Virus record (IMG/VR): IMGVR_UViG_3300029928_000117
Location: 1-5,456 of that record
Direction: 5' to 3' (one strand)
Length of the DNA: 5,456 bases
Source: a virus
Program-made: the position numbers and the translations under genes
Notes under the pieces: generated by a model
Seen by the model: only the letters and a program-made list of their open reading frames with translations
Told to the model about the DNA's origin: nothing
The model's database searches: none
In this document: one piece after another, positions 1 through 5,456 of the stretch
How the letters are laid out: each line of letters starts with the position of its first letter
How positions within the stretch are numbered: the stretch's first letter is position 1

Positions 1-93
1 GTTATCAATTCTGCAGATGTTCCTCTTGTCTTTCCATGGCGTGCATACAGATTTATTTGGAATGAGTTTTATAGGTTTGAACAGCTTGAGGAA
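1..93. repeat. Terminal redundancy, copy 1. It is identical to 5364..5456 and marks the overlap of a circular 5363-nt genome.
   Basis: Base-by-base comparison by eye: gttatcaattctgcagatgttcctcttgtctttccatggcgtgcatacagatttatttggaatgagttttataggtttgaacagcttgaggaa occurs at both 1..93 and 5364..5456. The reading frame is continuous across the implied junction. Confidence 0.97.
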
Positions 94-1443
94 GAGATAC
101 AGGTTTGCCAGTATTTGAATGCTGGTAACGATGCAGATTCTACTAAGATTTCCAATGCAGATTATGATAAGCTTTTGAAGCGTGGTTGGAGACGTGATTA
201 TTTTACTTCTGCCCTACCCTTCCAGCAGTTCGGTACTAGTCCTGCTTTCCAGCTCGAAGGTGTTTTGCCTGTTGAGTTCTATTACCCTGATACTTCTGTT
301 AATTTGAGTTATCATGTTGATGCTCCTCCTACAGGTAATACTTGGTCTCCTTTTTCTGGTACTGGTACTGTTAATTTTCCTTCTTATTCTAAGCAAGGAA
401 GTATTGATTATACTGTTGATCCTGCGTCTTGGACTTTTAATAGAAAAACTTCTGGTGAGTATAATGGTTCTGGTACTTCTACTGTTCATTTTACTCCTAG
501 GTATCCCGATTTTGCTGTTTGGCAAGATGTTTCTGGTGAGTATAATGGTACTCCTAATTTCAATTATTCTTCTGATGGTGAGATTCAGGGTTCCCGTACT
601 CCTACTTCTACTTTTTCTTTTACTTCTTATCCCAAAGGACGTGTGGATCTAAGAGATGCTGTTACTTTTGATATTTCTGATATTCGTACCAACTTCCAAA
701 TTCAAAAGTGGATGGAAAGAAACGCTCGTGGAGGTGTCCGTTATACTGAGTATCTTCAATCTCATTTTGGTGTCTCCCCTTCTGATGCAAGGCTTCAGCG
801 TCCTGAGTTTGTTGGTTCGTTTAGGTTGAATTGGATTGTAAGTGAAGTTCTTCAGACTTCGGCAACTCAAGATGGCAGCACTGCACAAGGTAACCAAGCA
901 GGACAAGCTATTTGTATTGGTTCTGGATCTCTCGGTACTTATAAGGCTTATGAGTTTGGTTATTATATGATAATGGCTTCAGTTATTCCTAAAGCCCAGT
1001 ATCAGCAAGGTTTGCCACGTTGGTTGTCTAGACGTACACGTTTTGATTTTTATTCGCCTGAGTTTGCGCATTTGTCGGAGCAAGCTGTTTTGAATAAAGA
1101 GCTTTTTGTCTCTGGTAACACTGAGACGGATAATGATATTTTCGGCTTCCAAGGAATCTGGAATGAGTTAAGGTATCTGCCTTCTCGTGTGTCGTATCAT
1201 ATGAGGTCTGATGCTCCAGATTACAGTTTTGATTATTGGCATCAAGCAAGGTTCTTTAGTACTACTCCGATTTTGAACAAGGAATTTTTGGAGATAGGTT
1301 CTACTGATTCTGGAAAAGCTGAGCTGATGCGACCTTTTGCTGTCCAGGACGAAAACCCGTTCATAATGCACTTTGGTTTCAACCTGAGAGCCAATAGACC
1401 TATCCCTTATTTGGCAGAACCCGGTCTTGTTGACCACTTCTAG
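1..1443 (+). CDS. VP1: Major capsid protein VP1, C-terminal 480 aa. The 5' part lies at 4938..5363. The full gene is join(4938..5363,1..1443), 1869 nt, 622 aa.
   Basis: - Frame +1 is open from base 1. Codons 1..114 read VINSADVPLVFPWRAYRFIWNEFYRFEQLEEEIQVCQY without a stop, so the TTG 'start' at 115 in the track is an artefact.
- Hallmark microvirus capsid motifs: IRTNFQIQKWMERNARGGVRYTEYLQSHFGVSPSDARLQRPEFVGS.
- Strong preference for T at third codon positions, typical of ssDNA microviruses.
- Stop TAG at 1441..1443. Confidence 0.95.
   Translation, partial: VINSADVPLVFPWRAYRFIWNEFYRFEQLEEEIQVCQYLNAGNDADSTKISNADYDKLLKRGWRRDYFTSALPFQQFGTSPAFQLEGVLPVEFYYPDTSVNLSYHVDAPPTGNTWSPFSGTGTVNFPSYSKQGSIDYTVDPASWTFNRKTSGEYNGSGTSTVHFTPRYPDFAVWQDVSGEYNGTPNFNYSSDGEIQGSRTPTSTFSFTSYPKGRVDLRDAVTFDISDIRTNFQIQKWMERNARGGVRYTEYLQSHFGVSPSDARLQRPEFVGSFRLNWIVSEVLQTSATQDGSTAQGNQAGQAICIGSGSLGTYKAYEFGYYMIMASVIPKAQYQQGLPRWLSRRTRFDFYSPEFAHLSEQAVLNKELFVSGNTETDNDIFGFQGIWNELRYLPSRVSYHMRSDAPDYSFDYWHQARFFSTTPILNKEFLEIGSTDSGKAELMRPFAVQDENPFIMHFGFNLRANRPIPYLAEPGLVDHF
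355..633 (+). repeat. Diverged triplicated coding module inside the VP1 variable insertion, plus an exact 19-nt direct repeat.
   Basis: - Three copies of a 12-13-codon module:
  - 355..390: SGTGTVNFPSYS
  - 469..507: SGTSTVHFTPRYP
  - 598..633: TPTSTFSFTSYP
- Exact 19-nt repeat ttctggtgagtataatggt at 450..468 and 531..549. It encodes SGEYNG twice, 27 codons apart. Confidence 0.8.
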
Positions 1444-1508
1444 TTAGAATTAACTAGGTGTCTAGTAAGAATTAACTACACTATCCGTAGTGTAGTTAAT
1501 GTTAACTA
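1441..1508. repeat. Cluster of four TTAACTA motifs (three direct, one inverted) directly downstream of VP1.
   Basis: - tagtNagaattaacta occurs at 1441..1456 and 1463..1478 (15/16 identical, 22-nt period).
- The inverted copy tagttaa is at 1493..1499.
- A further direct copy ttaacta is at 1502..1508. Confidence 0.75.
1471..1500 (+). other. Perfect hairpin with a 13-bp stem and a 4-nt loop, in the VP1-downstream intergenic region. Candidate complementary-strand priming site or mRNA 3' stabiliser/terminator.
   Basis: attaactacacta (1471..1483) is the exact reverse complement of tagtgtagttaat (1488..1500). The loop is tccg. No T-run follows, so it is not a canonical intrinsic terminator. Confidence 0.6.
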
Positions 1509-1586
1509 TTACGCTATATGTGGTGTATCGTTGATTCATCCCGATGGCATGTTTAAAACAAATTTCACATTTTGAGGTAAATACTT

Positions 1587-1994
1587 ATGAACGAAACAAT
1601 TACTTATTTGAGGAAGCATTTTAGAGCTATGGAACAAGGTGAAATCCGTGGCGAAGAGCCTTCTAGCACTCCTTCTCTAGTAGATAAGAGAGGTTATTTG
1701 TCATTAAAGAAACAAGTGGAGCGTGCTTTGCAAGCTGGTCAGCGTCTTGAGGCTTATCGACGTGGTGAATATGCGATCTCTGATACAGATGGCTTTGTAG
1801 AGCCTTCTCCGATAGATCAAGTTGTTGATCCTAGCGTTGATATCCCGATTATCGCGTCCGATCTAATTACCAAAGCTGAGCAAGTCCAGAACGCGAATAG
1901 CGATGACGGCGCGAAGCAGAGTCAGAGCAATGAGCAATCTGGAACTTCTCAGCCAGCAACTGAAGGCGTTGAGCCTGAAGGCGCTAGCAAATGA
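1587..1994 (+). CDS. Hypothetical 135-aa protein with an acidic, disordered C-terminal half. Possible internal scaffolding protein (VP3-like).
   Basis: - Start signals: ATG at 1587 with GAGGT (1574..1578) 8 nt upstream.
- T-ending codon preference over most of its length.
- Location immediately after VP1, in a genome that otherwise lacks a scaffold candidate.
- Charged helical N-terminal half (LSLKKQVERALQAGQRLEAYRRGEY), then a Pro/Asp-rich segment and a Ser/Gln/Glu tail.
- I do not see the ECDIN-type motif I associate with classical gokushovirus VP3, so the function is tentative. Confidence 0.45.
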   Translation: MNETITYLRKHFRAMEQGEIRGEEPSSTPSLVDKRGYLSLKKQVERALQAGQRLEAYRRGEYAISDTDGFVEPSPIDQVVDPSVDIPIIASDLITKAEQVQNANSDDGAKQSQSNEQSGTSQPATEGVEPEGASK

Positions 1995-1996
1995 GA

Positions 1997-2019
1997 TGGA
2001 GCTACTCGATGTAGCTCCA
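1997..2019 (+). other. Hairpin with a 9-bp stem and a 5-nt loop, 3 nt after the stop of the 135-aa ORF.
   Basis: tggagctac (1997..2005) pairs perfectly with gtagctcca (2011..2019). The loop is tcgat. Confidence 0.55.
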
Positions 2020-2089
2020 GCGAAGAGACTGCTGGTAATGCCCTTTCTACAAGCGACAGCATACCAGCTTTCGACTGTCAACTGGCTCT

Positions 2090-2111
2090 CGCGCGTGCGC
2101 GTGCATGCGCG
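2090..2111 (+). other. G+C-rich hairpin that is also a 22-nt perfectly alternating pyrimidine-purine (Z-DNA-prone) tract.
   Basis: - Sequence: cgcgcgtgcgcgtgcatgcgcg.
- 2090..2098 pairs with 2103..2111 (8 Watson-Crick pairs plus one G.T). The loop is gcgt.
- Strict Py-Pu alternation over 11 dinucleotides.
- It sits in an otherwise A+T-rich genome and is followed by an A/T-rich stretch. Confidence 0.6.
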
Positions 2112-2116
2112 GTTAA

Positions 2117-2140
2117 TATATCTTGATAATTATTATGCCA
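2117..2140 (+). promoter_or_regulatory. Candidate Rep nick site / viral-strand origin core (tatatCTTGATAATTATTATgcc).
   Basis: - CTTGATA at 2122..2128, followed by an A/T-rich run.
- This resembles my memory of the phiX174 origin core, CAACTTG^ATATTAATAAC (7-nt identical core, 11/15 over CTTGATA plus 8).
- It lies in the largest non-coding region, next to the GC hairpin.
- Weak on its own, because CTTGAT also occurs at 3946, 4100 and 4397. Confidence 0.25.
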
Positions 2141-2209
2141 GTTGACACGACTTATGGAGTCGTAAGACTGGAACGTATTTTTGACATCGTTCCAAAAAGG
2201 AGTAAAAAA

Positions 2210-3157
2210 ATGAGTTTTGATATAAATCCGTATATATCTGGTGCTGGTGCTTTGGCTGGTTTTGTGCAAGGTCAACAGAATCTTGCTTTTCAGAAAGAAC
2301 AGTTTGCTTATCAAAAAGAATTGCAAAAACAGATTTTTGAGCGTGAAGATAGTGCAGTTCAAAGAAGAGCTGCAGATTTGCAAAAAGCTGGCTTATCAAA
2401 GACTTTGGCTGCAGGTGATTCCGCTAGTGCTGGATCTGTTGTTAATACTACTGCTCCGCAGAATGATACTATGGCTCGTGTTATAGAAGGTATATCCATA
2501 GCTAAGGCTTTTTCAGAGGCTAAGCAAGCAGAGGCTTCGGCTTCTAATGAGGTTAAGCAAGGTAATCTGATTGATGAACAAGTTAAGTCTCAGGCTACTA
2601 ATCGTGCTTATACAGAAGCTCGTACACTTTTGACTACTGGATCTTATGAGATGCTTGGTATTCAGAAGCAACAGGCTGAAGCTATGATTTCAAAGGCTAA
2701 TGCAGAGACTGATTCTATAATGTTAGGAATGGGTTTTACTCGTGCGCAGATAGAGAAAGCTAAAGCTGAAACTGACTATATTACTGCACAAACTACTTCT
2801 GTTAATAATACTAATTCTTTGTTTGGTTTGCGTGAGGAAAATTTGAAGTTGCAGAATGAGCAATTGAGATTGTCCAATTTAGGTCAAGGATGGTCTAATA
2901 AGTTGTCTGAAGCTAGGTTGATTGCACAACAGAATGATAATGACGCTTTTAGTGTTCGTAAGGAATTGATGGAAGCTCAGTTAGCTGGACAACTTCTTGA
3001 CAATTCTCGACAGCGCATGGAAAATGTTTATATGAACTCTTTCGGTCAGAAGATGGGTACATCCACTAATAGTATGTGGGAAAAGTTTTTTGGTTCTGGT
3101 GAGAAAGGACTTGCTGTGGCTGTTGGTGATAAAATGTATAAATGGAGAGGTTATTGA
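2210..3157 (+). CDS. VP2: Minor capsid / DNA pilot protein VP2 (phiX174 H-like), 315 aa.
   Basis: - Start signals: ATG at 2210 with AAGGAG (2197..2202) and a 7-nt spacer. The track's upstream TTG at 2123 has no SD and lies in the intergenic region.
- The N-terminal region FQKEQFAYQKELQKQIFEREDSAVQRRAADLQKAGLSKTLAAG matches the conserved VP2 pattern (...AvQR...DlkaAGLNP.La).
- The rest is a long Ala/Gln/Glu-rich helical protein with internal KA.AETD.I repeats, consistent with a coiled-coil pilot tube.
- Stop TGA at 3155..3157. Confidence 0.85.
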   Translation: MSFDINPYISGAGALAGFVQGQQNLAFQKEQFAYQKELQKQIFEREDSAVQRRAADLQKAGLSKTLAAGDSASAGSVVNTTAPQNDTMARVIEGISIAKAFSEAKQAEASASNEVKQGNLIDEQVKSQATNRAYTEARTLLTTGSYEMLGIQKQQAEAMISKANAETDSIMLGMGFTRAQIEKAKAETDYITAQTTSVNNTNSLFGLREENLKLQNEQLRLSNLGQGWSNKLSEARLIAQQNDNDAFSVRKELMEAQLAGQLLDNSRQRMENVYMNSFGQKMGTSTNSMWEKFFGSGEKGLAVAVGDKMYKWRGY

Positions 3158-3158
3158 T

Positions 3159-3278
3159 ATGTCTTCTACTCTATCGGCTTTATCAGTTTTGTTTGTTTGT
3201 GGTTTGTGTTCATTAGGTCTTGGTTATTTGTTGTATCGTGCAATAATTAACATTATTCGTGAGATTAAAAAGAAATAA
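3159..3278 (+). CDS. 39-aa single-pass membrane peptide (MSSTLSALSVLFVCGLCSLGLGYLLYRAIINIIREIKKK). Candidate lysis or membrane-targeting protein.
   Basis: - Start signals: ATG at 3159, one nt after the VP2 stop, with GGAGAGG (3144..3150) upstream.
- One hydrophobic helix followed by a basic tail.
- T-ending codon preference.
- The track's 62-aa version (from 3090) overlaps VP2 and lacks an SD. Confidence 0.6.
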   Translation: MSSTLSALSVLFVCGLCSLGLGYLLYRAIINIIREIKKK

Positions 3279-3353
3279 GTACGCTATGGATAGTGTGGAT
3301 TCGTTAATTGACATATTATCCATTATATCCAAAATAATAGTTTCGGAGGTAAT

Positions 3354-3563
3354 TTGTTGAATCTTAAAGAGTTATTAGAAAATAGCCATTTCTCTAATTC
3401 TTTAAAAAAGAATTGGCGTAAAATTAGTTTTGTTTTTGCTAGTGTGCTGATTCTCGTATGTCTTTGGTGCTGTTATGGCTGTCAAGGACTCGCTAATGCC
3501 AACGGCGATAATAATCAGATTGTAATTTCAAAGGAGCATTCTAATGTATCGCAGGAAGCGTAG
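3354..3563 (+). CDS. 68-69-aa membrane protein with a Cys cluster (KKNWRK-ISFVFASVLILVCLWCCYGCQG...). Function unknown.
   Basis: - There is no ATG in the ORF. TTG is at 3354 and 3357, and GGAGG (3345..3349) is 7 nt from the TTG at 3357, which is therefore the more likely start.
- The layout is a positively charged segment, a ~20-residue hydrophobic helix, then CCYGC. This is signal-anchor or lipoprotein-like, but the lipobox is non-canonical. Confidence 0.5.
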   Translation: MLNLKELLENSHFSNSLKKNWRKISFVFASVLILVCLWCCYGCQGLANANGDNNQIVISKEHSNVSQEA

Positions 3564-3582
3564 AAGAAGAAGGAGACGATAA
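3544..3582 (+). CDS. 12-codon poly-arginine mini-ORF (MYRRKRRRRRRR). Either a remnant or duplicate of the N-terminus of the J/VP8-like DNA-binding protein, or a short coupling ORF.
   Basis: - Start signals: ATG at 3544 with a perfect AAGGAG (3531..3536) and a 7-nt spacer.
- The stop TAA (3580..3582) abuts the next ATG (TAAATG).
- At 12 aa it is shorter than any J-type protein I know, and its purine tract also supplies the SD of the next ORF. Confidence 0.3.
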   Translation: MYRRKRRRRRRR

Positions 3583-3738
3583 ATGTGTTCTCTTGGAGAA
3601 AATTTTGGTGTATGTCGTGCTGAGGTCAAGATGATTTTGGCTTCATGTCGTTATAGAGATTATAAGCGTGATGGTTATTGTGATTTCCAAGCGCGCTGGA
3701 ATGCTAAGAGGTGTTTGCGTGAGCAGAAGAAGGCATAG
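3583..3738 (+). CDS. 51-aa basic protein with Cys at residues 2, 11, 22, 33 and 44 (MCSLGENFGVCRAEVKMILASCRYRDYKRDGYCDFQARWNAKRCLREQKKA). Function unknown.
   Basis: - It is below the size cut-off of the supplied track; I found it by manual translation.
- Start signals: ATG at 3583 with AAGGAG (3570..3575) and a 7-nt spacer.
- 26 of 51 codons end in T, matching the bias of the bona fide genes.
- Stop TAG at 3736..3738. Confidence 0.45.
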   Translation: MCSLGENFGVCRAEVKMILASCRYRDYKRDGYCDFQARWNAKRCLREQKKA

Positions 3739-3799
3739 AAGAAGAAGAGCTAGAACTTCTTTTAATTATCGTGTTAATCGTGGTGGTATAAGATTGTGA
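3701..3799 (+). CDS. Small Arg-rich DNA-binding / packaging protein (phiX174 J-like, gokushovirus ORF8/VP8-like), 32 aa. An alternative start at 3671 would give 42 aa.
   Basis: - Manual translation: MLRGVCVSRRRHRRRRARTSFNYRVNRGGIRL.
- An Arg run plus a C-terminal RGGIRL is the pattern I recall for microvirus DNA-binding proteins.
- The stop TGA (3797..3799) abuts the Rep ATG (TGAATG), which suggests translational coupling.
- Neither ATG (3671 or 3701) has a good SD.
- The ORF overlaps the 51-aa ORF in another frame. Confidence 0.6.
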   Translation: MLRGVCVSRRRHRRRRARTSFNYRVNRGGIRL

Positions 3800-4675
3800 A
3801 TGAAATGTACATCCCCGATTATGGTTACTCGGAGAGATGGTAGTAATAGAGTCAAGATTGGATCAGATGGTTTGTCTTATGACTTAGTTCCTTGTGGCAA
3901 GTGTTTTGCTTGTCGTAAAGAGCGTTCGCAAGCTTGGGGCTTGCGCTTGATGCTGGAGTCTATAGAGCATAAGGATAATGTTTTTCTGACATTGACTTAT
4001 GATGAATTAGATGTTCCGTATGTTACTGATGGCGTTAATTTTTATAAAAGTCTTAAGAAAACAGATTTGCAGAAGTTTTGGAAACGGCTTCGAAAGGATC
4101 TTGATTATAAGATTTCTTATTACGCTGTAGGTGAGTATGGAGATGAGACAGGACGTCCGCATTATCATGCAATTGTGTTTGGTTTGTCTGCTTATGAAAG
4201 GCAGATTGTCCAGGATAATTGGACTCACGGACATGTTGAGGTTGATAGTGTAGATTTGGCGTCTTGTTATTATGTAGCTGGTTATTGCCAGAAAAAATTA
4301 TATGATACGGATTTTCCTGATGTTGTACAAAAACCGTTTTCTTGCATGTCTAAAGGTCTTGCTAAGATTTTTGTGGAAAACAATTGGAAGCAGATGCTTG
4401 ATGATGGTTTTATACGTTACAAAGGAATAAAGTATCCCATACCGCGTTATTTCTGGAAGATGATGTTGTCAGATGATTCTATACCGCTTTCTGAGTTTGA
4501 TTTGCAGAGCTATAAGTTCCATCAGAGGACTAAGGCTATGGATCTAATCGATTATAAATATAGTCGGTTAGGCGTTTTTGATGAGGTTTTGCGTGGTCAA
4601 TTAGAGGATAGAGCCCGTGAAGCCCGTGCTTGTGCCAATAAGAGTTTGGCGCGACAAAGGAGAACAAAGTTATGA
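3800..4675 (+). CDS. VP4: Rolling-circle replication initiator VP4 (HUH endonuclease, phiX174 A-like), 291 aa.
   Basis: - PCGKCFACRKERSQAW Cys cluster (aa 31-46).
- Motif I: FLTLTY (nt 3983..4000).
- HUH motif: GRPHYHAIVFG (HYH at nt 4160..4168).
- Motif III: YVAGYCQKK, with two Tyr spaced Y-x3-Y (Y158 at 4271..4273, Y162 at 4283..4285), as in the phiX174 A protein. Confidence 0.96.
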   Translation: MKCTSPIMVTRRDGSNRVKIGSDGLSYDLVPCGKCFACRKERSQAWGLRLMLESIEHKDNVFLTLTYDELDVPYVTDGVNFYKSLKKTDLQKFWKRLRKDLDYKISYYAVGEYGDETGRPHYHAIVFGLSAYERQIVQDNWTHGHVEVDSVDLASCYYVAGYCQKKLYDTDFPDVVQKPFSCMSKGLAKIFVENNWKQMLDDGFIRYKGIKYPIPRYFWKMMLSDDSIPLSEFDLQSYKFHQRTKAMDLIDYKYSRLGVFDEVLRGQLEDRAREARACANKSLARQRRTKL

Positions 4676-4938
4676 TGTTAAATGTTTATTCTATTTATGA
4701 TAAGGATACTGGAAAGTATGGTCAGCCTTTTTTTGCAGAAACGGATGCAGTTGCTAAGAGACAGTTTCTTATTGGTTGCAAGTCTTTACCTAAAGAGATT
4801 CTGGTTGCTCTTAAGTTTTTCCGTATAGCACATGTTGATATGGATACTATTGATTTCTCAAATGATTCGGAATTTATCATGTCAGGTGATGATGTTTTAG
4901 ATTATTTGGAAAATGAAAATAAAAAGGAGTCTAATTAA
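4672..4938 (+). CDS. 88-aa VP5-like non-structural protein (chlamydiamicrovirus ORF5-type).
   Basis: - The start overlaps the Rep stop as ATGA. AAGGAG (4657..4662) lies 9 nt upstream.
- The N-terminus VYSIYDKDTGKYGQPFFAETDAVAKRQF fits the remembered VP5 family pattern (v.tvyD.k...y..PFf......A.R.F).
- Its position between VP4 and VP1 is typical.
- The stop overlaps the VP1 start (TAATG). Confidence 0.6.
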   Translation: MMLNVYSIYDKDTGKYGQPFFAETDAVAKRQFLIGCKSLPKEILVALKFFRIAHVDMDTIDFSNDSEFIMSGDDVLDYLENENKKESN

Positions 4939-5456
4939 TGGCTGGTGTTTTTTCTAAAGTCGGCGGTTACAAGCCGTCAAAGAATGCCTTTTCTTTAAGG
5001 CATTCTAATTTGTGTGATATGGGTTTTGGTGATGTAGTCCCTATTGACTGTATAGAGATGGTCCCCGGTGATGTTTTCCGTAATGACGTTAACATAGTTG
5101 GTCGACTTTCTAACTCTCTTTCATCTCCAATGTTGGCTGATATGGATGTTATTGTTGAAGCGTTTTTTGTCCCTACTCGTCTTTTGATGGGACATGATGC
5201 TAATTTTGACACTCCAGTTGGTGAGCGTAATTTTGAGGAGCTTCTTGTTGGAGGTAAAGATGGAAATGAAGATTTGTCTGTTCCCGTCTACGGTCTTCCT
5301 AATAAAGAGTTGAAGTTTGGTTTCGGAGGTATTTCAGATTACATTGGTATACAGCAAAATGTCGTTATCAATTCTGCAGATGTTCCTCTTGTCTTTCCAT
5401 GGCGTGCATACAGATTTATTTGGAATGAGTTTTATAGGTTTGAACAGCTTGAGGAA
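4938..5456 (+). CDS. VP1: Major capsid protein VP1 (phiX174 F homologue), N-terminal part. It runs off the window end and continues at position 94 through the circular junction.
   Basis: - Start signals: ATG at 4938, preceded by AAGGAG (4924..4929) with an 8-nt spacer. The start overlaps the upstream stop as TAATG.
- My translation has no stops: MAGVFSKVGGYKPSKNAFSLRHSNLCDMGFGDVVPIDCIEMVPGDVFRNDVNIVGRLSNSLSSPMLADMDVIVEAFFVPTRLLMGH...PWRAYRFIWNEFYRFEQLEE.
- Conserved microvirus capsid N-terminal motifs are present: F.L.H...DMG..VP.....V.PGD, FFVP.R, and Y..IWNE(F)YR.
- The ORF is absent from the supplied track because it has no stop inside the window. Confidence 0.93.
   Translation, partial: MAGVFSKVGGYKPSKNAFSLRHSNLCDMGFGDVVPIDCIEMVPGDVFRNDVNIVGRLSNSLSSPMLADMDVIVEAFFVPTRLLMGHDANFDTPVGERNFEELLVGGKDGNEDLSVPVYGLPNKELKFGFGGISDYIGIQQNVVINSADVPLVFPWRAYRFIWNEFYRFEQLEE
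5364..5456. repeat. Terminal redundancy, copy 2 (identical to 1..93).
   Basis: Same 93-nt string as at the window start. The offset of 5363 nt gives the genome unit length. Confidence 0.97.

Follow-up and report, generated by a model that had tools for sequence, protein, structure and literature searches.

The small DNA-binding proteins of microviruses, VP8 in gokushoviruses and J in phiX174, bury their C-terminal residues within a hydrophobic pocket that the capsid protein (VP1) provides, and contact DNA through the basic N-terminus (PMC11281519). Here we describe a cluster of small open reading frames (ORFs) at positions 3531–3799 of a 5,456-nucleotide (nt) viral sequence (IMG/VR virus record IMGVR_UViG_3300029928_000117, positions 1 to 5,456; hereafter "the window"), in which a VP8-type gene is accompanied by a 12-codon, arginine-rich mini-ORF. 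The window is a gokushovirus-type microvirus genome with its genes exclusively on the plus strand. Its VP8 gene (3719–3799) is like gokushovirus VP8 and phiX174 J (8DES chain E; SpV4 VP8, PMC11281519) in size, in having 11 arginines, in its RGGIRL motif and in lying next to VP4; it differs from its relatives by a GTG start and a 20-nt overlap with the preceding gene. The mini-ORF resembles VP8/J in composition and, in relatives, in its N-terminal words (MYR.K, MRFRRRRR), but it lacks the C-terminal anchor, which is the only structurally conserved part of the family (PMC11281519).

Three other kinds of system invite comparison. Tandem arginine-rich ORFs occur near VP8 in two loci of other uncultivated gokushoviruses, L103 and L155 (the latter matching IMG/VR locus L227): L103 has an extra ORF beginning MRFRRRRR (2833–2994), and L155 has three tandem arginine-rich ORFs before VP4 (508–896). 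These are likewise extra, small, coupled to VP8 through ATGA and endowed with MRFRRRR N-termini, but they follow VP8 and are longer (23–51 amino acids (aa)); we found no description of such ORFs in the literature searched. Attenuation leaders such as hisL and pheL are ORFs of 12–16 codons that are dominated by one amino acid and lie upstream of genes consuming that residue. With 9 arginines in 12 codons the mini-ORF is similar, but the window has neither a terminator/antiterminator nor the space for one, and the position of the mini-ORF relative to VP8 varies by lineage. T4 gene 60, finally, combines a short coding segment, a stop, a gap and similar codons at both sides. Its gap, however, is 50 nt as against 175 nt here, and our locus differs further: folding predicts no take-off hairpin, relatives vary in frame and gap, and the downstream ORF possesses a start of its own. 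Free-standing oligo-arginine mini-ORFs beside VP8 were not described in the literature that we searched, the coverage of which was incomplete.

We favor, with a probability of about 0.6, the reading that 3531–3799 is a stable, tight run of three separate small genes (the mini-gene, a 51-aa accessory gene and a complete VP8 gene), and that the oligo-arginine peptide aids packaging.

The mini-ORF and the VP8 gene

The features of the cluster, all on the plus strand, are as follows.

3531–3536, plus strand: Shine-Dalgarno (SD) sequence AAGGAG of the mini-ORF, 7-nt spacer to ATG 3544, duplex −7.9 kcal/mol
3544–3582, plus strand: oligo-arginine mini-ORF, MYRRKRRRRRRR, 12 codons followed by TAA (3580–3582), without a C-terminal capsid anchor
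3561–3572, plus strand: first copy of the 12-mer TAGAAGAAGAAG, read in the mini-ORF frame as CG-T AGA AGA AGA AG-G
3570–3575, plus strand: SD sequence AAGGAG of the 51-aa ORF, within the mini-ORF arginine codons AGA AGG AGA, 7-nt spacer, −8.8 kcal/mol
3583–3738, plus strand: 51-aa cysteine-containing ORF, MCSLGENFGVCRAEVKMILASCRYRDYKRDGYCDFQARWNAKRCLREQKKA, stop TAG at 3736–3738, cysteines at residues 2, 11, 22, 33 and 44
3706–3713, plus strand: SD-like AAGAGGTG of VP8, within the 3′-terminal part of the 51-aa ORF, 5-nt spacer to GTG 3719
3719–3799, plus strand: VP8, J-like DNA-binding protein of 26 aa, (M)SRRRHRRRRARTSFNYRVNRGGIRL, GTG start, TGA at 3797–3799 abutting the VP4 ATG at 3800
3736–3747, plus strand: second copy of the 12-mer TAGAAGAAGAAG, read in the VP8 frame as CA-T AGA AGA AGA AG-A, its TAG being the stop of the 51-aa ORF

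The preliminary description of this DNA had proposed that a VP8/J gene was split or partly duplicated around a 175-nt segment. Its reading of the upstream signals (AAGGAG, 7-nt spacer, ATG 3544, 12 codons, TAA) and of the 12-mer at 3561 and 3736, 175 nt apart, was accurate. It had also held that the downstream arginine tract, which ends ...RRRHRRRRARTSFNYRVNRGGIRL before the TGA at 3797–3799, had no convincing SD. This part was mistaken: GTG 3719 is preceded, with a 5-nt spacer, by AAGAGGTG, whose anti-SD duplex of −7.1 kcal/mol compares with −6.9 for the 135-aa ORF at 1587 and −7.1 for the 39-aa ORF at 3159. The alternative VP8 starts (ATG 3701, ATG 3671 and GTG 3668) reach just −2.4 to −2.9 kcal/mol. 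Upstream of 3719 the VP8 frame scores as non-coding by codon usage (−0.33, versus +0.13 for the 51-aa frame), and GTG 3719 aligns with the VP8 ATG (MSRRR...) of two related lineages, L094 and L177.

The protein predicted from GTG 3719 has the hallmarks of a VP8 in its 26 aa, its 11 arginines, its C-terminal NRGGIRL and its place directly 5′ of VP4, and the SD and the alignment point to an independent start. Because it has its own start and SD, is full length compared with relatives and begins where their ATGs align, VP8 is intact, neither split nor broken. An alignment of 24 VP8 sequences (A3) has an invariant M1 and an invariant R-G-G-I-R, and its profile matched PDB 8DES chain E, a "putative DNA binding protein" ending ...MRGGIRL, with E = 4.4e-5; the profile was needed, as the window VP8 alone found no match in PDB or PHROGs. 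An Arg/Lys-rich small ORF ending ...RGGIRL stands immediately before VP4 in most loci of the IMG/VR relatives (VP4 30–45% identical, among the matches listed).

In relatives the RGGIRL codons (CGN GGA GGT ...) also spell GGAGGT, the SD of the gene after VP8, for example in L103 (2905–2925) and L155 (608–628); the anchor motif therefore overlaps the ribosome-binding site (RBS) of the next gene.

The mini-ORF encodes 9 arginines and 1 lysine in 12 aa, the composition of a basic arm, and ends ...RRRR at its stop, with nothing resembling the capsid anchor. We therefore call it arm-like only, and not a member of the VP8 family in the structural sense.

Each 12-mer copy is one T followed by (AGA)3AG, and the match can be extended to a 20-nt repeat of 85% identity. 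A dinucleotide-shuffle null gives an expectation of 0.08 matches; when both arginine-rich peptides were recoded synonymously, however, a shared string of at least 12 nt appeared in 3.7% (genome arginine usage) to 9.1% (tract usage) of cases. In five related lineages the longest string common to mini-ORF and VP8 is 7–8 nt, showing no conservation of the repeat. The 12-mer is (AGA)n low complexity, a by-product of arginine runs written with AGA. Deletion of 3561–3735 does join the two tracts in frame and yields MYRRKRRRRRARTSFNYRVNRGGIRL, as had been noted, but the in-frame join is automatic because both tracts read AGA as arginine, and it follows by construction from the AGA runs.

Conservation of the arrangement among relatives

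Close relatives were reached through VP4. An exact look-up of the 291-aa VP4 found no record because gene callers begin the protein at ATG 3821; the corresponding 284-aa form, which belongs to a cluster of nine members at ≥90% identity, led to a set of 13 contigs assembled from separate samples in ENA and Logan (the source samples include ERZ27300192, ERZ808242, ERZ26858472 and SRR29834431). Of these, two match the window exactly and 11 have 92–96% genome-wide identity, with 666 variable sites (∼12 per 100 nt). In all 13, positions 3544–3755 are identical to the window, and the sole change within 3544–3799 is C3756G, which replaces a threonine of VP8 with serine; the set also shows an insertion of 3 nt where the VP8 stop meets the VP4 ATG. 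The preliminary description had raised the possibility of a mixed population with a deletion variant, yet the 175-nt deletion occurs in none of the 13 assemblies and the segment is carried by every one. Because these assemblies come from separate samples, the arrangement at 3531–3799 is stable and no assembly artifact. In none of the 13 contigs did gene callers report the 26-aa VP8 or the 12-aa mini-ORF. Since the contigs are invariant at 3544–3755, they cannot tell which frames are under selection.

More informative were four intermediate lineages, with VP4 45–52% identical to the window, which we read in three frames. In all of them (4/4) VP8 is complete and has a start codon of its own, and a separate oligo-arginine mini-ORF lies upstream.

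L094: mini-ORF (M)YRRRRRRRRIR and stop, from a TTG start (AAGGAG, 7 nt, TTG); VP8 MSRRRRRRTKSYYRYKINRGGIRLD, ATG start
L095: mini-ORF MRRRRRRYGRRRRRF and stop (AGGAGG, 7 nt, ATG); VP8 MRRRIHRRRRNKSSYRYRVNRGGIRLD (GGAGGAG, then ATG)
L096: mini-ORF MRRRRRKSYKRRRY and stop (weaker SD, −7.1 kcal/mol); VP8 MRRRIRLRRARSRYNYRVRRGGIRL (AAGGAG, 7 nt, ATG)
L177: mini-ORF MRFRRRRRSFRRRRR and stop (GGAGG, 7 nt, ATG); VP8 MSRRRRRTKFRSSFKYRVNRGGIRL (AAGGAGG, 7 nt, ATG)

The preliminary description had suggested looking in relatives for an uninterrupted ORF and had itself named a shared architecture as an argument against recent insertion. The relatives do share it: all four lineages have the same layout of a mini-ORF and a separate, complete VP8.

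We then scanned all fetched loci for ORFs of 8–24 aa with at least 50% arginine, an SD duplex of −6 kcal/mol or stronger and no RGGIRL tail. The scan returned 11 ORFs on plus strands, a count that takes in the window as well as L177 and L178, two copies of a single genome. The minus strands (695 kb) gave none, and neither did either strand of a further 192 kb of genome loci. ORFs with a GG[IV]R[LFM] tail were excluded by design, and the ten counterparts are tail-less for that reason. The counterparts, of 10–23 aa, come from nine other lineages (L094, L095, L096, L177, L021, L173, L103, L117 and L119); they always adjoin VP8 or a neighboring basic ORF, and each has a strong SD by the cut-off of the scan. 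A DNA-pattern scan of IMG/VR for M[YF]RRKRRRRRR (a lengthened pattern) gave 0 matches.

What is conserved is the encoded arginine rather than the nucleotide string. When the mini-ORFs of the window and L094 are aligned, 9 of the 10 codons are different, yet 7 of the 9 changes replace one arginine codon with another, including CGC/AGA and CGT/AGA switches. The L117 mini-ORF writes its arginines chiefly as CGT, and there the next start is not adjacent. Because arginine is kept through codon switches, and because of the CGT usage of L117, we conclude that an arginine-rich frame is conserved and not merely a purine-rich RBS. The mini-ORFs also share N-terminal words with VP8 starts of relatives (MYRTK.., MYGRKRR..), and that of L177 matches the N-terminus MRFRRRRRRSFRTRRR.. 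(MRFRRRRR.. type) of 32–42-aa DNA-binding proteins of IMG/VR microviruses. Duplication or truncation of the basic arm would thus fit as their origin. In this respect the earlier suggestion of a partial duplication keeps its value: an old duplication or fission is a fair evolutionary reading of the arm-like N-terminus, although VP8 itself is not broken. In L173, MFRRKRRRRR is followed in a single frame by TAG, one codon and MHHRSPKKHIKYYRVTRGGVRL, with a weakly basic tail (2244–2345), and this locus looks like a true fission.

The 51-aa ORF and the neighboring genes

The mini-ORF stop directly abuts the ATG of the 51-aa ORF (TAA/ATG, 3580–3585). The preliminary description had credited this ORF with its own AAGGAG-7-ATG and a genome-typical bias for T in third codon positions, and both were borne out, third-position T being 0.51 compared with 0.52 in the large genes. 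Its codon-usage score is +0.27 in frame versus −0.54 and −1.06 off frame, which exceeds all off-frame control windows and lies at the 10th percentile of in-frame windows. Gene callers called it in 13/13 related contigs. The exact protein is recorded on 14 contigs, and there are two variants: P0129 (Y32F, D34E) and P0131, in which both TAG codons of the frame are replaced by Gln and the ORF is extended to 60 aa. The T's concerned in P0131 are third positions of the VP8 codons CAT and GCT, so that both stop losses could be T-to-C changes silent in VP8. Its Gln at TAG 3736 would most simply reflect T3736C, and the exact repeat would then shorten.

Two very large searches returned only the ORF's own cluster as homologues, and no Pfam or PHROG family was found above threshold. 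A HMMER search of 1.84 billion representatives returned long repetitive proteins (770–2677 aa), which we took as spurious, and a weak Pfam ESF1 match (E = 0.008, below the cut-off) was treated as chance. A single-sequence AlphaFold 2 model is a helical hairpin (helices 4–24 and 32–50; predicted local distance difference test score 75.7) in which Cys11/22 and Cys33/44 are each three helical turns apart (twin Cx10C). The pattern may resemble that of CHCH-type hairpins. A fold search with the model gave no match at E below 7.9. The ORF looks to be a coding, lineage-specific accessory ORFan.

In relatives the slot between mini-ORF and VP8 is filled differently: it holds an ORF of 58 aa in L094, one of 65 aa in L095 and two of 49 and 86 aa in L177, while in L096 the mini-ORF lies directly 5′ of VP8 and an 84-aa ORF is found ahead of the mini-ORF. 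Pairwise and all-versus-all comparison of the middle-slot ORFs of the window, L094, L095, L096, L177 and the prophage locus L180 revealed no mutual similarity at E below 0.25. In every lineage the slot is coding, with lineage-specific content.

The remaining genes of the window are as follows.

4938 wrapping across the ends to 1443, plus strand: VP1 major capsid protein, ATG start at 4938 (Pfam Phage_F, phrog_514)
1587–1994, plus strand: 135-aa ORF
ending at 3157, plus strand: VP2 pilot protein, followed by a string of small ORFs
3159–3278, plus strand: 39-aa membrane-like ORF
3286–3360, plus strand: conserved tiny ORF, MDSVDSLIDILSIISKIIVSEVIC
3357–3563, plus strand: lipoprotein-like small ORF of 68 aa, TTG start at 3357, TAG stop at 3561–3563
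3800–4675, plus strand: VP4 replication initiator, immediately 3′ of VP8 (PF23343, phrog_942)
4672–4938, plus strand: VP5 (PF20577)

The lipoprotein-like ORF is interlocked with the mini-ORF. Its last 20 nt overlap the mini-ORF, its codons carry the mini-ORF SD, and its stop supplies the TAG found in the first 12-mer copy. It was called as a 68-aa ORF in L005, L012 and L013. The motif CQGL[AVI]NANG does not vary among the window, L094, L095 and L096 and recurs in L180; L177 reads CQGLVPLN. The signal consists of a KKNWRK n-region, a hydrophobic core and a cysteine followed by QGLANANGDNNQIVIS, and relatives have the canonical lipoboxes LSSC, LMSC and LASC. The ORF matched nothing in Pfam or PHROG, and an IMG/VR scan with the lipoprotein motif gave pattern matches, none of which was confirmed. 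It may serve as a lipoprotein for lysis or exclusion. The L180 prophage (in a metagenome-assembled genome (MAG) of Candidatus Ornithospirochaeta avicola) has a near-identical mature lipoprotein N-terminus despite a VP4 identity of 48%, a likeness that hints at a spirochaete host. For an E. coli gokushovirus, phage has been revived in a host (PMC7062461).

Just upstream, a DNA motif found clade-wide (TTGACA..ATTATAT), flagged by a promoter scan at 3308, is coding sequence of the 3286–3360 ORF, whose counterparts read SLIDRLSIISK in L095 and ILVDRI(S/Y)IIYI in L177 and L180. Downstream, the probable start of VP4 is ATG 3800 (MKCTSP...), which directly follows the VP8 stop; the callers' choice, ATG 3821, is without an SD (+0.3 kcal/mol). 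The VP4 N-terminus MxCxxP is conserved in relatives.

Diversity among the 13 close relatives is uneven along the genome. The blocks 1400–2200 and 3300–3800 have 0–8 variable sites per 100 nt, compared with up to 45 in VP1/VP5, and their low diversity may reflect either overlapping constraints or recombination sweeps. Positions 3000–3300, which comprise the VP2 end and the 39-aa ORF, were BLAST-aligned in only 3–4 of the 13 and seem to have been replaced or to have diverged strongly in most of them. An INPHARED megablast with the whole window had a sole match of 41 nt in VP1, and an IMG/VR scan with window-specific VP4 peptides gave no match. In VP4-alignment scans of metagenomes and IMG/VR, all matches listed had at most 46% identity, and closer relatives are possible.

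Function of the mini-gene and competing explanations

We propose that the mini-gene arose long ago as a paralogue of the DNA-binding protein, truncated to its basic N-terminal arm. Its translation would produce an oligo-arginine peptide lacking the RGGIRL capsid anchor, and this peptide would supplement the anchored VP8 by contributing positive charge that condenses the rather large 5.46-kb single-stranded DNA (ssDNA) genome during packaging. The last arginine codons of the mini-gene, AGG AGA, would double as the SD of the next gene, and the abutting TAA/ATG would hand ribosomes on to the 51-aa ORF. Stops and starts abut both there (3580–3585) and between VP8 and VP4 (TGA/ATG, 3797–3802), and coupled translation may extend over the whole cassette, which comprises the lipoprotein-like ORF, the mini-ORF, the accessory ORF, VP8 and VP4. 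A broader version of the proposal, which we put forward only tentatively and consider less likely than not, is that a subset of gokushoviruses with larger genomes possesses a second packaging peptide, a directly translated oligo-arginine "free arm" of 10–23 aa, duplicated or split off from VP8, that condenses ssDNA without being anchored to the capsid, and that the gap between mini-gene and VP8 is a recurrent landing site for accessory genes, occupied here by the twin-Cx10C ORFan.

Several points weigh against our reading. The synthesis, stability and packaging of the 12-aa peptide are predictions. L180, the closest prophage found (VP4 48%), is without a mini-ORF; the mini-ORF is therefore dispensable in some lineages and not universal. 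The final codons of the mini-ORF double as an SD in three of five close lineages, so that part of the conservation may be at the RNA level. The near-invariance of 3300–3800 in close relatives leaves the frames without a synonymous/non-synonymous signal, and it could have arisen through a recombination sweep instead of selection. The preference for GTG 3719 over ATG 3701 as the VP8 start is drawn from SD strength and alignment. Genome size, by contrast, speaks for the packaging role: free contigs with the mini-ORF measure 4.7–5.5 kb, whereas 79 IMG/VR relatives have a median of 4.41 kb (Mann-Whitney p = 8e-4), an association that takes neither phylogeny nor contig completeness into account.

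The main rival holds that translation of the mini-ORF is a coupling device alone, which delivers ribosomes to the next start and supplies AGG AGA as its SD, while the peptide has no role. The mini-ORF stop does abut or overlap the next start in the window, L094, L095 and L096 (TAA/ATG, ATGA, TAATG), in L177 the next ATG lies 5 nt past the stop, the last arginine codons form AAGGAG or AGGAGG 5–7 nt from the next start, and L180 does without a mini-ORF altogether. A coupling ORF, however, would not require ∼75% arginine, and the CGN/AGR switches keep arginine far 5′ of the part that serves as SD; in L117 and L119 the arginines are mostly CGT and the next start is 24 nt downstream with its own SD, the L103 counterpart is located after VP8, and the N-termini coincide with those of genuine DNA-binding proteins. 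We regard this explanation as unlikely, though clearly ahead of the others. It is improbable that the mini-ORF is a non-functional relic of a duplicated VP8 5′ end, its purine run kept solely as an RBS or enhancer. The arginine runs are AGA-rich low complexity, and L180 retains AGA AGA AGG AGA without a start codon as its VP8 SD region, as a relic would predict; yet start, strong SD, stop, a length of 10–23 aa and arginine content are kept in ten lineages at VP4 identities of ∼34–52%, where synonymous sites should be well mixed, and comparable ORFs are absent elsewhere in the scanned loci. Slightly less probable still is an arginine-sensing leader, in which pausing at scarce Arg-tRNA would tune the accessory ORF, the arginine-hungry VP8 and VP4. 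Such a role would suit a short ORF with a run of a single residue, as in the his and phe leaders, lying 5′ of VP8 in the five lineages nearest the window. We found no terminator-like site in 3000–4000 and no Rfam match, however, RNA structure is not unusual (z = −0.66), the next ORF begins at the very next base and leaves no space for an attenuator, and the L103 ORF sits after VP8.

The remaining explanations are those of the preliminary description. That a single VP8 was recently split by a 175-nt insertion, or that a coexisting repeat-mediated deletion variant supplies a 26-aa VP8, is very improbable. An exact 12-mer flanks the segment, its deletion gives a textbook VP8, and L173 has an oligo-arginine ORF and a VP8-like tail in one frame with only TAG and one codon between. 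Against this stand the presence of the segment in 13/13 assemblies and of the exact 51-aa protein on 14 contigs, the same layout at 45–52% VP4 identity with inserts that are unrelated and of different lengths, a downstream VP8 complete with SD and start, and a 12-mer that is expected in 4–9% of synonymous recodings and is absent in relatives. Recoding, whether a ∼175-nt bypass in the style of T4 gene 60 or readthrough of TAA 3580 fusing the arginine leader to downstream sequence, is hardly credible, even though AGA codons occur at both sites and the mini-ORF and the 51-aa ORF are in one frame with only TAA between. Mini-ORF and VP8 share a frame in L094 and L095 but are offset by +1 in the window; mini-ORF and middle ORF share a frame in the window only; the gap is 175 nt in the window, >360 nt in L177 and absent in L096; no stable take-off hairpin is predicted; and VP8 possesses a start of its own. 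As for take-off and landing codons, CGA is the final sense codon ahead of TAA, 3583–3799 contains no CGA, only CGT, and the AGA runs at both sites are not adjacent to the stop. The fold of 3520–3810 is unremarkable both as RNA (z = −0.66) and as DNA (z = −0.14). Because frames and gaps vary, the fold is ordinary and there is neither an Rfam match nor a terminator, bypassing, readthrough fusion and classical attenuation are disfavored.

Taken as three separate genes, the cluster presents the oligo-arginine mini-gene as a variation on the J/VP8-type DNA-binding peptides, and a split gene, a deletion polymorphism and bypassing are unsupported. The general picture of microvirus biology is unchanged, and the function suggested for the mini-gene is inferred. 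For annotation, a GTG-started VP8 with an additional oligo-arginine gene is easily mistaken for a broken gene. The variable slot between two arginine-rich genes points to a hotspot of gene gain in minimal genomes. If the broader version of our proposal is true, the mini-gene would be one of the shortest phage genes with a function, and, if functional, it would mean that the neutralization of DNA charge in some microviruses is divided between an anchored VP8 and a free oligo-arginine peptide. A functional mini-gene would thus bear on the way in which T=1 capsids accommodate larger genomes, and it would offer a very small genetic test system.

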